NCBI GenBank assembly: GCA_041661745.1
Contig: JBAZTR010000002.1
Coordinates: 132,368-196,367 of the forward strand
DNA from: Patescibacteria group bacterium
GTDB lineage: Bacteria > Patescibacteriota > Patescibacteriia > UBA9934 > GWF2-40-263
Reading direction: 5' to 3'
Length of the DNA: 64,000 nucleotides
The notes beneath the pieces are model-generated. The model searched no databases, was not told the DNA's origin, and was given only the letters and a program-made list of their open reading frames with translations. Below are positions 59,397 to 64,000 of this stretch, in pieces; within the stretch, counting starts at the first letter, position 1; each line of letters opens with the position of its first letter. The position numbers and the translations under genes are program-made.

Positions 59397-59466
59397 ATTC
59401 GAGGAGATCCACCTTCGCCGAGCTTCGGCGGACAAGGAGTCCACGATTGCGAATCCTGTCCATGTT

Positions 59467-59498
59467 GGACGGGTCCGGCAGGCATGCCGTCCTTTTTT
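59467..59498 (+). terminator. Intrinsic terminator / attenuator immediately upstream of the ribosome-binding site and ATG of the first GC-rich gene
   Basis: GGACGGGTCCGGCAGGCATGCCGTCC hairpin, then TTTTTT, then GGAGGAAAACATG. Confidence 0.55.
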
Positions 59499-59508
59499 GG
59501 AGGAAAAC

Positions 59509-60372
59509 ATGCGCTTCGTCATCAGCAGCAATCCCGTCGTCCTCGCCGCCGCCCTGCAGGACAAGCCGTCCGCAACGGTCGAGGCCGAGTACGGCAACGC
59601 CGTGGTCGAGGGCTCTGTCCTCACCATGGCGCACCACGGCCCCCGCGCCGGCCAGCCCGCGCCCTGTGCCTACGAGAACGGCTGCGCCGACGGGGTCGAG
59701 GTGGTGGGCCTGTCCCACTTCGATCTCGACACCCTCGGCGGGTGCGCGGCCATCCTCGGCCGCAAGGTCGAGGCCCCGACCTTCTGGCAGCTCGCCGAGT
59801 TCATCGACCTCAACGGGGCTCACAAGCTCAACGAGGGGATCGAGAAGACCGGCGCGACGCCCGACGACGTGGCCAAGCTCTTCGCCTTCTGGGCGTGGTC
59901 GCGCAACTTCCGCGTCTTCCCGAACCGCGACGGCAGCGTCAGCGACGTCACCGACAAGGTCATCGAGGGCTGCAACGTCCTCGACAAGATCATGAACGGC
60001 GATGCCGACCTGATGAAGGCCGGAACGGTCTACAAGGACGCGGAAGGGAAACTCAACGCCGACTCGTTCGTGGAGGCGAAGGACGGCGTGGTGGTGCGGG
60101 TCTCGTCCCAGTTCACCAACCACCTGTACAACACCCCCGACGGGAAGGCCCACGCCGCGGTCGTGGCCTACACCACGACGACCGGCGCAGTCACGGTCAG
60201 CTTCGCGGACTCCCCCAAGGGCAAGAACGCCCGCCAGATCGTGCAGGAGCTCTGGGGTGAGCTCGCCGGTGGCCACGCCGGAATCGCCGGCAGCCCCCGC
60301 GACCGTCGCATGTCCCTCATCGACCTCACCGCGGCGGTCGAGGCCCTCCGCGCCGCGCTCGCCGGCAAGTAG
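59509..60372 (+). CDS. Hypothetical protein (about 68% GC, foreign composition)
   Basis: ORF 59497..60372 with ATG at 59509 behind a GGAGG ribosome-binding site. Strong GC3 bias. No motif recognised. Confidence 0.55.
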   Translation: MRFVISSNPVVLAAALQDKPSATVEAEYGNAVVEGSVLTMAHHGPRAGQPAPCAYENGCADGVEVVGLSHFDLDTLGGCAAILGRKVEAPTFWQLAEFIDLNGAHKLNEGIEKTGATPDDVAKLFAFWAWSRNFRVFPNRDGSVSDVTDKVIEGCNVLDKIMNGDADLMKAGTVYKDAEGKLNADSFVEAKDGVVVRVSSQFTNHLYNTPDGKAHAAVVAYTTTTGAVTVSFADSPKGKNARQIVQELWGELAGGHAGIAGSPRDRRMSLIDLTAAVEALRAALAGK

Positions 60373-60577
60373 TCACATAGGTTTCTTTCCCAATTTCTTC
60401 TCCTTAGGGCGAAAAAAGTAAATTGGCCATGTGTGCTTTCGAACTCGAGCACGCGTGGAACCGTAGAGTTCAAAAGGAAAGTCGTCTCCCTTTAAGTAGA
60501 CGGCAAAAACAATGCACTCGATTGGCGGATTCACTCCCCGCCTCTTCGACTAAACTCTTGAATTTTCTTTCGAGGGC

Positions 60578-60760
60578 TTTGAGAAGAAAAAATATGATTT
60601 ACTATTTTGTCTACGTCGCTTCGGCGATCGGTACGTTGGGAGTTTTGCTCGGATTGAGCTAACTCAAAAAGCACGAGAGAAAAATCTCACGTGTGCTTCA
60701 TGATTTATAACCTCACCCCGCCCTCCCCTTAGTAAGGAGAGGGAGTTACAAATCATGAAG
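60578..60760 (+). repeat. 180-bp leader repeat, copy B
   Basis: See copy A. Contains mini-ORF 60594-60662 and the same two hairpins. Confidence 0.85.
60594..60662 (+). CDS. 22-aa hydrophobic mini-ORF (MIYYFVYVASAIGTLGVLLGLS)
   Basis: Paralog of 59229-59297. Confidence 0.4.
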   Translation: MIYYFVYVASAIGTLGVLLGLS

Positions 60761-61295: not shown

Positions 61296-61371
61296 TATCA
61301 AACTCGCACTCCTGCCGGACGCACGAGGTCGTCCGGGACAACAGGCTAACTAACCTCAACCGGAGGGTGGC

Positions 61372-62019
61372 ATGTCCACCACCGATTCCGACCCCCGCGG
61401 GTCATACAAAGGAATCGTGGTGGCCATCGGCGGGCCGCCACATTCCGGAAAATCAGTGTTCCTCGCGGAGCTGTACCGACAGCTTCTCGCGAGACGGCCC
61501 TCCGGCACGTTCCTGCAAAGGGCGTGCCCGGACGGCGAGGGCATGTGGTCAGCCGAGTCTGACCCAACCCTCGTCGCCGAGATTCGGAGGAAAGGGACTT
61601 TCTCCTCAGAGTTCATGGGCTTCACCCTGAAGTCCGTCGAACGCCTGGGGAGGACAATGTCCATCGTCCTCTTGGACCTCGGGGGCCGGCGGACCGCGGA
61701 GAACGCCGAAATTCTCCGCCGGTCATCGCACCTCCTGGTGCTCTCGTCGAAAGACACAGAGTGCCAGCCGTGGTGCGAGTTTGCCGAGGCTGAGGGGTGC
61801 AAACCTCTCGCGATCCTCGGCTCTCGGCTGGTCAAAGGAGTGGACGGCTCCCTTGATCAGACAGTGCGTAGCTGGGTTGATACGTCTGCCCGGCCCGTCC
61901 ACGGAGAAATGCTGAATCTGGACCGCCAGACCAGCAGCTCTCCGTACGCAGAGGCGATCGGCCAGTTCGCCGACTGGTTGATCGCGGAGGCGGATCGGTA
62001 CCGCCTTTGCAGGGGTTAG
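61372..62019 (+). CDS. P-loop NTPase (GC-rich)
   Basis: Walker A AIGGPPHSGKSV. Walker-B-like IVLLDLGG. Confidence 0.55.
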   Translation: MSTTDSDPRGSYKGIVVAIGGPPHSGKSVFLAELYRQLLARRPSGTFLQRACPDGEGMWSAESDPTLVAEIRRKGTFSSEFMGFTLKSVERLGRTMSIVLLDLGGRRTAENAEILRRSSHLLVLSSKDTECQPWCEFAEAEGCKPLAILGSRLVKGVDGSLDQTVRSWVDTSARPVHGEMLNLDRQTSSSPYAEAIGQFADWLIAEADRYRLCRG

Positions 62020-62242
62020 CCTCACCCATTGTCCTCTCGCCAGCAGACCGAGGGTGCAAACACAACAGTCTGCTAAAAAATCTGGAGGGCTTCACTCGCC
62101 TTCCCCAAAACCTTGTACCGATATGCACATGTCGAGTCCAGGGTTCCCACCATATGATTTGAACATAAATTTGAGTCATGTGGTGGGAATGTGATGAACA
62201 GAGGCAAAACCGCCAAAGTGAAACAACCCAACGAGGTCTAAA

Positions 62243-63451
62243 ATGGCATCGACAACGACTGCGACTGCGGCCCTGGCGGCCAAAGTCAAGGCGGTCAGTG
62301 TCGATGTTCTTGCCCGGAACATCGGGCGCGGCGACGTGGTTAAGGCCACGTGGCTCGCGCTACTTACGGGCCGTCCGGCGTTCTTTCTAGGATCGCCGGG
62401 CGTCAACAAGACCGGCACTGTCGAGGCCCTCGCGGGCCGAGTAGACGGTGCGGTTTTCTTCGAAGCCCTCATGCCGGTCATCGCGTCGAGCGAACAGCTC
62501 CTCGTCGAGTCGACCAGCATCGAGGAAATGCCGGCCGCAAACGGCGGCAAGAGCATCCGCACCCGCGATGAGCTAGGGCGCGCAGCGAAAGCGCACCTGG
62601 TCTTCGCGGACGAAATTTGGAAGGCGGACCCCCGTGTCCTCCAGACCCTGCTCGACCTTTCGAAAGGCGACGGGGTAAGGCATGAGGGGTCCATGGTCAA
62701 GACGCCGCTCATGGCGTTCTTGGCCGCATCGAACGAACTGCCCGAAGAGGAGGGAAACCTCGCGGCCCTGTGGTCCCGTATGACCATTAGGGTCGTGGTG
62801 AATCCTCTCGACCGCGGCGGCAAGCTCGCGCTTGCCAAGGCGCGGCTCGCCGGGCAAAAGTCGGGCGTGGGCGGCAACGCGGTTTCTTCCGCGAAGCTCT
62901 CGCTCGATGAAGTCCGTCAACTTCGTGCGGCCCGCAACACCGTCATCGTCCCGGACTCCATCGTGGAGCTTGTGCTGGAAATCTACCAGCAGCTCCTCGA
63001 CAAAGAGGACGGCGACTTCGATTGGCTGTGGGCCGACGATCGGCGCTTCGGCCGGGTTCTCGACGTCCTGCAGGCCAATGCCCTGCTCGACGGCCGGAAC
63101 ACGGTCACGAAGCAGGACCTCGCGGTCCTCGAGTGGCTGCTCTGGAATGATCCGGAGCAGATCGGGACGGTAAAGGCGGTGCTTGCACCGTACTGCCGGA
63201 CTCCGCTCGACGACGCCCGCGAGCTCGTCGATGCACTTCTGGCCCCGGGCGGAACCGTGGCCGAGGTTCGTGGTGGCGCACGAGGCAAGGGCGTCCAAGC
63301 GCTGACGCAGGTCGAAGAAACCTGCAAGGCGCTCGAGGCGCTCAAGGCCAACGCCGGCCCGCTTGCCGGCGACGTCGACGCCCTGCTCCGCCAGACCGTG
63401 GCGGTGAAACAGGAAGTAATCAACGTCATCACCGGCGCGGTCCGGAGGTAA
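62243..63451 (+). CDS. MoxR-like AAA+ ATPase (GC-rich)
   Basis: FLGSPGVNKTG (MoxR-type Walker A). HLVFADEIWKADPRVLQTLLDL (Walker B / sensor). Confidence 0.6.
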   Translation: MASTTTATAALAAKVKAVSVDVLARNIGRGDVVKATWLALLTGRPAFFLGSPGVNKTGTVEALAGRVDGAVFFEALMPVIASSEQLLVESTSIEEMPAANGGKSIRTRDELGRAAKAHLVFADEIWKADPRVLQTLLDLSKGDGVRHEGSMVKTPLMAFLAASNELPEEEGNLAALWSRMTIRVVVNPLDRGGKLALAKARLAGQKSGVGGNAVSSAKLSLDEVRQLRAARNTVIVPDSIVELVLEIYQQLLDKEDGDFDWLWADDRRFGRVLDVLQANALLDGRNTVTKQDLAVLEWLLWNDPEQIGTVKAVLAPYCRTPLDDARELVDALLAPGGTVAEVRGGARGKGVQALTQVEETCKALEALKANAGPLAGDVDALLRQTVAVKQEVINVITGAVRR

Positions 63452-63454
63452 GCA

Positions 63455-64000
63455 ATGGCCACCAAGCCGGCGCTTATCGGCCGCGGGGAGCTGCAGAAGC
63501 TTCTTGTGACTGATGCGGACGCGTTCACCGCGCTCCGCTACCTTCGTCACCGCGACGAAGTTCCTGCCCTCGCCGAAATTGAGGAGCAGGGAGAGGTAAA
63601 GCACCCCGGAACAGCCGGATGCCTTACGGATCTCTACCACGCACTTTGGGCCCCTGAGCCCGAGGTTCGCGAAGAGTCCAAGGTTCCGGCTGATCGCCGC
63701 TGGTGGCGCCAGCTTCTGGCCCAAACCGTTTCGACGGGTGGGTACCAGGAGCTACACGCCGCCACTGAACTCTCCGACCTTCGGAGTGTTCTCGGCACGG
63801 TCACAATGGGCGAGACGGTTCTTGCCTGTGTGTCCGACGAGGACGCCGAGAAGCTCGAGGAGCTTTCGCAGGCGCAGGCTAAGGCCGACGACTTGGCAGC
63901 GCAAGCTAGCCAGGCACAGGCCGAGGCCGACGCCATGCAAGCGGCATCCGGGGAAATGGAGGGGCAGACCGGCGCCGGTTCCCCTTCGGAAAAAAATTCC
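63455..64000 (+). CDS. Hypothetical protein, 5' partial (MoxR-adjacent partner; runs off the window end)
   Basis: ATG 4 nt after the MoxR stop. Open frame with GC3 bias to the end of the window. Confidence 0.45.
   Translation, partial: MATKPALIGRGELQKLLVTDADAFTALRYLRHRDEVPALAEIEEQGEVKHPGTAGCLTDLYHALWAPEPEVREESKVPADRRWWRQLLAQTVSTGGYQELHAATELSDLRSVLGTVTMGETVLACVSDEDAEKLEELSQAQAKADDLAAQASQAQAEADAMQAASGEMEGQTGAGSPSEKNS

Follow-up and report, generated by a model that had tools for sequence, protein, structure and literature searches.

The question raised by this locus is why a genome of about 45% GC should carry genes in which the GC content of third codon positions (GC3) reaches 0.95. The locus lies at the end of a 64,000-nucleotide (nt) stretch of DNA, here called the window, from a Patescibacteria group bacterium (GenBank assembly GCA_041661745.1, contig JBAZTR010000002.1, positions 132,368 to 196,367 of the forward strand). 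The last 4.6 kb of the window are the first half of an 8.75-kb GC-rich gene cluster that includes genes for a MoxR-class AAA+ ATPase, a vWA protein and a Csx3/Crn3 ring nuclease. Close relatives of this cluster are confined to the Candidate Phyla Radiation (CPR)/Patescibacteria. The GC excess is limited to open reading frames (ORFs) and is family-wide across nearly every CPR host examined, and the GC content is no donor signature. The explanation that we favour, with moderate confidence, is a horizontally exchanged pool of CPR conflict genes, whose coding sequences are held GC-rich in AT-richer genomes by a force limited to ORFs.

An earlier reading, made from the sequence alone, had described an abrupt shift in GC over the last 4.6 kb. 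This shift is borne out: GC is 0.454 over positions 1-59400 and 0.622 over 59401-64000, and 500-nt windows of the former part have a mean of 0.454 (standard deviation 0.040) and a maximum of 0.584. The same reading was right to place lower GC before 59.4 kb, but at about 45% GC the genome is moderately AT-rich at most. The rise in GC is a series of ORF-sized blocks and no single continuous block. The host genes RpoB, RpoC, TrmB and integrase have a GC3 of 0.37-0.49. The GC-rich ORFs and the spacers next to them are the following.

58229..59508: host-like spacer of 1.28 kb between the TrmB gene and the DHH-like gene; GC 0.44
59509..60372, plus strand: DHH/DHHA1-type phosphodiesterase, NrnA/Pde2-like, 287 amino acids (aa), predicted from motifs, an AlphaFold2 model and Foldseek; GC 0.69, GC3 0.95
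60373-60992: host-like spacer of 620 nt; GC 0.46
60993..61295, plus strand: Csx3/Crn3 ring nuclease, 100 aa (Pfam Cas_csx3, TIGR02579); GC 0.71, GC3 0.94
61372..62019, plus strand: P-loop NTPase, 215 aa, Csx3 "AAA" partner (PADLOC Csx3-AAA models, 3.6e-37, 3.1e-31 and 6.1e-30); GC 0.63, GC3 0.77
62020-62242: host-like spacer of 223 nt; GC within 0.46-0.48
62243..63451, plus strand: MoxR-class AAA+ ATPase (bpMoxR, RavA-like), 402 aa (Pfam bpMoxR, AAA_lid_8, AAA_5); GC 0.65, GC3 0.79
63455..64000, plus strand: N-terminal 181 of the 573 aa of a vWA (ViaA-like) protein that continues past the window (Pfam VWA_2, on the contig L001 described below); GC 0.64, GC3 0.70 for the part in the window

The low-GC spacers, and the repeated leader that the sequence-only reading had seen among the GC-rich genes, are thus both present. 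So are the long ORFs in all six frames to which it had drawn attention, although these are read as an expected by-product of high GC3.

The cluster is genuinely embedded in a CPR genome and is no assembly artefact. The gene for the MoxR protein is also present on two other contigs, one from an ENA MEGAHIT assembly (ERZ27249449, L001) and one from Logan (SRR6484324, L002), and the same proteins are on record in a 217.8-kb NCBI/JGI contig, giving three assembly sources. L001 and L002 are 100% identical to the window across every composition junction, in the case of L001 over the whole of 52976-64000. Beyond the window, L001 shows that the GC-rich stretch runs for about 8.9 kb and ends near the equivalent of window position 68259, after which GC is about 0.43 and genes for a signal-peptide peptidase (SPP) and DNA polymerase I (PolA) follow. 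Since the junctions are identical in two other assemblies and the same layout occurs in more than 20 other CPR genomes, there is no chimeric join, which had already been thought less likely.

By analogy with known systems, the cluster would be a conflict system of the MoxR-vWA type that is controlled by TrmB and includes a module for clearing oligoadenylates. The MoxR protein matches the bpMoxR family (PF20030, 2.3e-18, 66 bits vs a cut-off of 27) and has the Walker A and Walker B motifs GSPGVNKT and FADE. The vWA gene, which starts 4 nt past the MoxR stop codon, encodes a protein that scores 31.7 bits against VWA_2 (cut-off 27) and has an intact MIDAS motif, DSSGS. Downstream of it in L001 lie genes for a variable protein of 768 aa and then a protein of 117 aa. 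The Csx3 protein scores above the family cut-offs (PF09620, Cas_csx3, 1.1e-18, 67.3 vs 21 bits; TIGR02579, 67.5 vs 55.4 bits). When it is aligned to the Csx3 of A. fulgidus (3wzi), residues H57, H60, D69, R71 and H80, whose roles are taken from PMC7371418, are kept (LVHAAHP, FDPRLG and ATHDE). The P-loop NTPase has the Walker A motif GGPPHSGKS and is fused to Csx3 in a WWE3 locus (L005); it also has a weak PADLOC match to mad8 (0.006).

The DHH-like protein resembles the DHH-DHHA1 nanoRNases NrnA/Pde2 and TM1595 in its two-domain fold, its GGH motif, its His/Asp metal motifs and its top structural matches. The motifs HH, SHxDLD (H-x-D-x-D) and GGH are invariant among 29 homologues. Its AlphaFold2 model has a pLDDT of 96.7, and the best Foldseek matches of the model are S. 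aureus NrnA (8iu7) and the T. maritima pApA phosphodiesterase (5o1u), with probabilities of 0.98-1.0. Unlike these enzymes, it scores only 20 bits against Pfam DHHA1, under the cut-off of 25.9, and has no significant Pfam DHH match and no PDB sequence match. The structural matches (8iu7, 5o1u and 8a8k; probability 0.95-1.0, E 1.5e-4 to 4e-3) have low TM-scores of about 0.3, so that the domain arrangement or motif order may differ from that of NrnA-type structures.

The closest described counterparts are the MoxR-vWA 'ternary' NTP-dependent conflict systems (Kaur, Burroughs, Iyer and Aravind 2020, PMC7159879). As in those systems, a bpMoxR-type AAA+ ATPase adjoins a vWA protein with an intact MIDAS, a third, large and much faster-evolving protein follows the pair, and the three are co-inherited as a unit; the link to Csx3 also has a precedent, in a Csx3 fusion in Leptolyngbya. 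Unlike in those systems, the third protein is not recognisable by sequence as VMAP, iSTAND or beta-propeller (no Pfam family or PDB chain), the vWA protein is without a recognisable C-terminal effector domain, and the cluster goes together with TrmB, with Csx3, NTPase and DHH as separate genes, and with a GC anomaly limited to ORFs. It should be noted that CPR bacteria, which are unicellular and have reduced genomes, were set aside in the test of a link to multicellularity made by Kaur et al. (PMC7159879).

The Csx3 protein is like the Csx3/Crn3 and Csx3-AAA accessories of type III CRISPR-Cas (PMC7371418) in its above-cut-off family score, its catalytic His, Asp and Arg residues and its adjacent P-loop partner. 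It differs in being paired with a DHH phosphodiesterase and a MoxR-vWA system, and a non-exhaustive search showed neither a cas-type match for any island protein nor a family of CRISPR-like repeats in the window. For both the ATPase and the vWA protein, the best NCBIfam match is the RavA-ViaA system of Enterobacteria, which has the same ATPase-then-vWA order. However, the scores are far under the equivalog cut-offs (8.6e-34 and 117 bits vs 681 for RavA; 45 bits vs 500 for ViaA), and the E. coli and Salmonella entries of the phage collection are about 30% identical.

Judging from family membership, the cluster would serve in conflict or defence as an NTP-dependent system of the MoxR-vWA type. 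In it, the ATPase and the vWA protein may together remodel the variable large protein, which would be the sensor or effector, while Csx3 and the DHH enzyme would clear a cyclic or linear oligoadenylate signal. The P-loop NTPase, as the usual partner of Csx3, would belong to the same oligoadenylate-degrading module, and TrmB is predicted to control expression from the long divergent spacer.

The homologues of these proteins are found in CPR genomes, the taxonomy resting on record titles. MoxR has 230 relatives; among the best 120 of them, at 60-76% identity, all those with a named source are from Patescibacteria or from unclassified 'bacterium' metagenome-assembled genomes (WWE3, Jacksonbacteria and others). 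Among the best 120 relatives of the DHH-like protein (50-86% identity), the named sources are likewise Patescibacteria (Magasanikbacteria, Parcubacteria, Gottesmanbacteria and Uhrbacteria). A scan of the GTDB species representatives gave 21 loci, 20 of which have the conserved cluster. Nine of these 20 are titled as CPR lineages (Patescibacteria, Harrison-, Paceibacterota, Adler-, Doudna-, Uhr-, Parcubacteria and WWE3) and 11 are automatically named assemblies, some evidently mislabelled; the one clear match outside the CPR, in Gemmata, has 28% identity. The IMG/VR, phage and plasmid collections yielded only MoxR relatives of 32% identity or less and no close one, and no phage or plasmid hallmark gene is present among the Pfam-scanned proteins of the window end and L001. 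In the literature, we found no description of this cluster or of GC-rich ORFs in CPR.

Across the CPR, the genes follow a conserved order, in which a large protein is followed by TrmB on the minus strand, a long spacer and a variable set of small GC-rich genes, and then by MoxR, vWA and another large protein. In 13 of the 13 loci with at least 3 kb of background sequence, the MoxR-vWA-large-protein trio lies above background GC, by a mean of +0.13 GC and +0.21 GC3 (Wilcoxon p = 2e-4), and the slope of trio GC3 against host GC3 is only 0.53. The GC of TrmB follows the host, being 0.30 where the host has 0.29 and 0.65 where the host has 0.60. Six further genomes show the DHH-like gene as an isolated spike of GC, for instance with 0.66 in a host of 0.33. 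Its GC is 0.64-0.68 in a genome of Magasanikbacteria that itself has a GC of about 0.33, and in L034 (GC3 0.98) and L036 it forms a single-ORF spike in unrelated contexts. Among 69 further metagenomic and viral contigs, it lies clearly below its flanks (difference under -0.02) in only one.

The boundaries of the excess coincide with those of the genes. Averaged over 29 ORFs from 9 genomes, GC climbs at the start codon, over about 20 nt, from about 0.50 to 0.65, and is down to 0.51 within 10 nt of the stop. The spacers of four lineages are mostly 150-2000 nt long with a GC of mostly 0.42-0.54, a few short ones reaching 0.56-0.73. At fourfold and twofold sites alike, the enrichment extends to both C and G.

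At fourfold sites of residues conserved between lineages, observed minus expected identity is 0.00-0.12, which is near saturation and similar to RpoB, RecA and RuvA at comparable protein identity. GC at fourfold sites (GC4) is nevertheless 0.63-0.87 in all hosts except the two most AT-rich (L013 and L019). As the fourfold sites are near-saturated yet GC4 is high, the excess is no residue of one recent transfer; and since composition steps at start and stop codons despite this near-saturation, the GC-rich state appears to be maintained in ORFs.

The trio appears to be inherited as a unit, with a history decoupled from that of the neighbouring TrmB. Pairwise identities are correlated within the trio (Spearman rho 0.69-0.77; MoxR-vWA 0.71, MoxR-large protein 0.77), at median identities of 59% for MoxR, 55% for vWA and 39% for the large protein. 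In contrast, rho is -0.04 for MoxR-TrmB and -0.24 for MoxR-NTPase, and in L024 the TrmB is the closest of all (52%), while its MoxR (54%) ranks among the most distant. The absence of correlation of MoxR with TrmB and NTPase indicates that the modules have exchangeable, horizontally mixed histories within the CPR.

The cluster is accessory DNA. It belongs to a 13.4-kb block made up of a methyltransferase-domain protein, TrmB and the cluster, and bounded by the integrase and SPP genes. The left part of the block and its flank are as follows.

54148..55101, plus strand: tyrosine recombinase, a XerC/D-like integrase (Pfam Phage_integrase 5e-44, SAM-like N-terminal domains)
55105..57465, plus strand: first gene of the block, a 786-aa protein with a C-terminal SAM methyltransferase domain (Pfam Methyltransf_25/11); host-like GC of 0.42
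57416..58228, minus strand: TrmB-family transcription regulator, divergent from the GC-rich genes (Pfam TrmB 2.7e-14); host-like GC of 0.44, GC3 0.42

The variable block starts 4 nt past the integrase stop codon. A close relative, L033 (amino-acid identities of 84% for EF-P, 89% for S18, 83% for SSB and 86% for the integrase), is collinear with the window through EF-P, S18, SSB, S6, tdk, the methyltransferase and the integrase and again at SPP. Its integrase-SPP interval holds a NUDIX gene and a small ORF only, and the 13.4-kb block is absent. To that extent the earlier reading was right, as a close relative is without the whole block at the same site. The C-terminal part of the 786-aa protein matches PADLOC mad2, a component of the methylation-associated defence system (1e-16). 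In other loci, the place upstream of TrmB is likewise taken by large proteins, of which three group as family f9, and TrmB lies to the left of the cluster in 12 loci.

Two simple causes of the high GC were considered and ruled out. Protein composition does not force it, as distant DHH-like genes in AT-rich contigs have a host-like GC3 of 0.15-0.31, and translational selection for C-ending codons only does not fit the equal enrichment of G-ending twofold codons. Horizontally acquired islands, and recombining bacterial genes subject to GC-biased conversion (PMC4450053), are like the present case in forming an accessory block next to an integrase, with atypical composition and a decoupled, recombining history. 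However, genomic islands are usually AT-richer than their host, intergenic DNA included, and their composition decays with time; here there is a GC excess, limited to ORFs, that persists past synonymous saturation with GC3 up to 0.95.

We put forward, tentatively, that the CPR-restricted conflict gene families (Csx3, NTPase, DHH, MoxR, vWA, the large protein and the 117-aa protein) are actively held at very high coding GC. The same tentative proposal covers a GC3 of up to 0.95-0.98 in hosts of 29-51% GC, boundaries exact to the ORF and persistence through synonymous saturation. The force could be selection on the coding sequence or mRNA, or else GC-biased conversion or allele replacement linked to recombination. 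In the case of mRNA selection, candidates are stability, resistance to RNases during a nuclease response, or throttled expression. If the proposal is true, an ORF-specific process that drives GC with a strength not described in bacteria would be at work; it might yield GC-rich, structured or RNase-resistant mRNAs for genes expressed during a nonspecific nuclease response, or might represent unusually strong recombination-linked biased conversion at a frequently exchanged locus.

Several points weigh against active maintenance and the functional assignment. The cause of the maintenance is itself inferred by exclusion. The comparison of trio and host took its background GC from at most 10 kb of flanking sequence, the low identities among TrmB proteins (21-52%) make the test of decoupling noisy, and the samples behind the three assemblies may be related. 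In the large protein, GC is as high in the variable C-terminal half as in the conserved parts, which disfavours conversion limited to homologous stretches. Furthermore, the shifts reported for GC-biased conversion in bacteria appear far smaller than what would be needed here, where GC3 reaches 0.95. GC-rich CPR hosts (L010, L017, L020 and L025) and GC-rich contigs with distant DHH-like genes (L037, L084 and L128) exist, and given these a GC-rich source that feeds allele replacement is possible. On the functional side, no oligoadenylate synthase or CRISPR-Cas was identified within the window, which leaves the role of Csx3 without a known partner here, and the 768-aa and 117-aa proteins have no match in Pfam, NCBIfam, PADLOC, PHROGs or PDB sequences.

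Among the alternatives to active maintenance, the one that survives best, although we consider it unlikely, is that the genes were imported, or their alleles replaced, repeatedly and fairly recently from a GC-rich reservoir not yet sampled, be it CPR lineages, a mobile element or a phage of high GC. Crossovers inside conserved ORFs would then leave the resident spacers at host composition. The presence of the cluster in GC-rich CPR hosts (0.62-0.66 GC) would fit such a reservoir, as would the history of the trio, decoupled from TrmB, the insertion or deletion of the block between close relatives, the distant DHH-like genes in contigs of 0.64-0.70 GC and in large IMG/VR contigs, and the matches of MoxR and vWA to PHROG families. 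However, the close relatives (54-86% identity) are all in hosts of 0.33-0.51 GC, except one at 0.60, while homologues in a GC-rich context are more distant (41-52%), and no close MoxR is present in the viral, phage and plasmid collections. In addition, the GC3 of DHH and Csx3 (0.94-0.98) exceeds that in GC-rich CPR hosts (0.73-0.80), and boundaries exact to the ORF in 29 genes would each time call for crossovers at the ends of the ORF.

With respect to viral relatives, distant DHH-like proteins (34-50% identity) occur in 34 IMG/VR contigs (L037-L069), mostly 25-297 kb long and with a GC of 0.27-0.67. MoxR and vWA match phrog_19600 and phrog_24053, and the MoxR-like ATPase of the Bacillus jumbo phage 0305phi8-36 has 27% identity. 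Large phages therefore carry distant versions of these modules. On L084 (JACCDR010366084.1, 119 kb, GC 0.70), a contig composed mainly of genes without a Pfam match, the DHH-like gene has 52% identity and one neighbour is a Mg-chelatase/ChlI-type AAA+ protein; the neighbours of DHH-like homologues in GC-rich contexts are in general mostly without Pfam matches.

The spacers of the cluster contain repeats and candidate regulatory elements, which bear on a further alternative. Those in the window are listed below.

58222-58338: long hairpin (about 100 nt) that separates the start of TrmB from the plus-strand promoter-like site
58364-58336, minus strand: promoter-like site, divergent from the next one
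58431-58459, plus strand: strong promoter-like site facing the cluster, TTGACA-17-TACTAT with TG
59223..59401, plus strand: repeat D1, copy A, 179 nt
59229-59297, plus strand: hydrophobic mini-ORF of 22 codons in copy A, MIYQITYIASAIGTLGFMLGLS
59327-59306, minus strand: terminator-like hairpin in copy A, which reads as an intrinsic terminator
59476..59498, plus strand: terminator-like hairpin with a T-run, immediately before GGAGG, the ribosome-binding site of the DHH-like gene
60588..60766, plus strand: repeat D1, copy B, 179 nt, inside the 620-nt spacer
60594-60662, plus strand: mini-ORF in copy B, MIYYFVYVASAIGTLGVLLGLS
60691-60672, minus strand: terminator-like hairpin in copy B

The hairpin at 58222-58338 may be an operator palindrome, and that at 59476-59498 is a possible attenuator. 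An Rfam search of 58.2-62.3 kb at a permissive threshold gave only sub-threshold matches to miRNA-type hairpins and no known RNA family. The two copies of D1 form a direct repeat with 88% identity, with no third copy in the window, and their hairpin of about 65 nt has fold z-scores of -5.4 (copy A) and -5.95 (copy B). The mini-ORF copies differ by 4 synonymous and 6 amino-acid-changing codon changes, five of the latter between hydrophobic residues. The mini-ORF was not found in the other loci, nor did an exact search for the D1 hairpin in metagenome contigs give a match. The spacers of the window and of L030 show no similarity outside the ORF, which is as expected at that divergence and hence uninformative.

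Structured repeats specific to the island also occur in other lineages, each with repeats of its own. In L003, a unit of two hairpins with compensatory changes is present in five copies on the plus strand, vs 0.39 expected by chance, and the copies are located 20-90 nt past stop codons. Such repeats could be insulators, terminators, RNA-stability elements or recombination sites. The 79-nt repeat of L003 was also considered as a leader that sequesters ribosome-binding sites, and this was rejected: no start codon follows the repeat, and the ribosome-binding sites of the genes lie further downstream. In L033, the integrase-SPP interval contains three tandem copies of a 36-nt GC-rich unit at about 7210-7320, GGCCGGCCGTGCCGGCCATAGCTTGCCTCAAGCGAC, as well as CTCTCC...GGAGAG hairpins similar to those of the window repeat.

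Structured repeats next to an integrase recall an integron-like array, in which a conserved integrase would serve promoterless GC-rich cassettes, each followed by a structured recombination site. The integrase lies directly upstream and is conserved in L033 with different downstream genes, lineages differ in gene content between TrmB and MoxR, and repeats are found past stop codons in L003 and on both sides of the DHH gene in the window. We nevertheless regard such an array as very improbable: the order of MoxR, vWA and large protein is fixed, no integrase lies near the cluster in L003, L005, L007, L030 and L035 (loci with gene calls), the long spacers have promoter-like sites, the repeats are wholly different between genomes with no attC-type signature seen (no attC model was applied), and the integrase is of a generic XerC/D type.

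The origin proposed by the sequence-only reading, namely that an epibiotic CPR cell acquired the genes from an actinobacterial host or partner of high GC, is more doubtful still, and we give it hardly any credence. The codon usage does look actinobacterial, with C- and G-ending codons and a GC3 of up to 0.95, and MoxR-vWA systems are frequent in Actinobacteria (PMC7159879). However, the best relatives of the MoxR, DHH-like, Csx3-AAA and vWA proteins are in CPR genomes, all those with a named source being CPR, and these GC-rich genes are shared by lineages labelled WWE3, Parcubacteria, Harrisonbacteria, Adlerbacteria, Doudnabacteria, Uhrbacteria and Magasanikbacteria. Because the close relatives are from CPR and the MoxR proteins of Nocardia and Streptomyces plasmids reach an identity of only 28-32%, an actinobacterial origin is unsupported; tdk, one of the isolated GC-rich genes cited for it, is nearest to Bacteroidota. 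Nothing in the analysis supports an epibiotic lifestyle or an actinobacterial host for this organism. Finally, mis-assembly or contamination, by which a GC-rich contig would have been joined to a CPR contig, has next to no probability: the composition step is abrupt and close to the window end, but the junction sequence is identical in two further assemblies out of three assembly sources in all, GC is back at the host level downstream with SPP and PolA, host-like spacers and an island-specific repeat lie between the GC-rich ORFs, and the TrmB-linked layout recurs in over 20 independent genomes.

Taken together, no known process readily explains a family-wide GC excess over hosts. Foreign genes are usually expected to drift to host composition, and genes that lie 15-30 GC points above their hosts, exactly within ORFs, run counter to this. 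The cluster genes are thus a natural test case for selection on coding GC vs biased gene conversion in bacteria. Composition-based contamination filters and the inference of horizontal gene transfer donors would misjudge them, as the first reading did. CPR/Patescibacteria are considered to have few defence systems and to be mostly without CRISPR-Cas. The widely conserved, TrmB-linked Csx3/DHH/MoxR-vWA cluster would be a candidate for a conflict system specific to the CPR, in which oligoadenylate signalling without CRISPR could be sought.

In the neighbourhood of the cluster, genes for HicA/HicB toxin-antitoxin pairs with a host-like GC of 0.41-0.50 lie between the Csx3/NTPase genes and MoxR in L003, L004 and L007, and the WWE3 cluster is flanked by a PIN gene. 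RNase toxins therefore recur in the surroundings of the cluster.

Elsewhere in the window, other isolated GC-rich genes had been taken to show the same pattern on a small scale. They do exist, but their composition is milder than that of the cluster.

5997-6620: supposed 'GNAT', GC3 0.59, without Pfam match
19457-19732: small GC-rich ORF, GC 0.61, GC3 0.66, without Pfam match
43498-44031: smaller GC-rich gene, GC3 0.66
51417-52070: tdk, GC3 0.71

The 'GNAT' label is thus not backed by any Pfam match. The GC3 of tdk is 0.71 in the window genome and 0.59 in L033 (2316-3113), where the neighbouring host genes have a GC3 of roughly 0.25-0.50. Since the nearest named relatives of tdk are Bacteroidota of moderate GC (about 50-54% identity), donor composition fails to explain its excess. 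The ORF at 19457-19732 adjoins a tRNA-Arg(CCG) gene (19966-20042), the end of which overlaps a 111-nt tandem duplication (20031-20141/20142-20252, 99% identical); the three could be the remnant of an integration site.

The 16S rRNA gene (26689-28185) lies between 38-nt inverted repeats (26570-26607/28284-28321), which probably form a processing stem, and is followed by tRNA-Ile and tRNA-Phe (region 26570-28642). The rRNA genes appear to be unlinked, as no 23S rRNA gene was detected anywhere in the window. Two palindromic terminator-like hairpins with 97% identity (48635-48672/49314-49351, AAAAACCAACCGGACAAACGGTTGGTTTTT) bracket a gene at 48729-49316. Lastly, positions 1-370 of L001 differ from window positions 52606-52975, and upstream of the point corresponding to 52976 L001 has a DUF559/Vsr-like endonuclease gene (Pfam 6.7e-43). 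At this position, the window has an ORF of 129 aa (52122-52511) after tdk, and L033 has neither; the region beside the DNA methyltransferase looks like a second variable spot.

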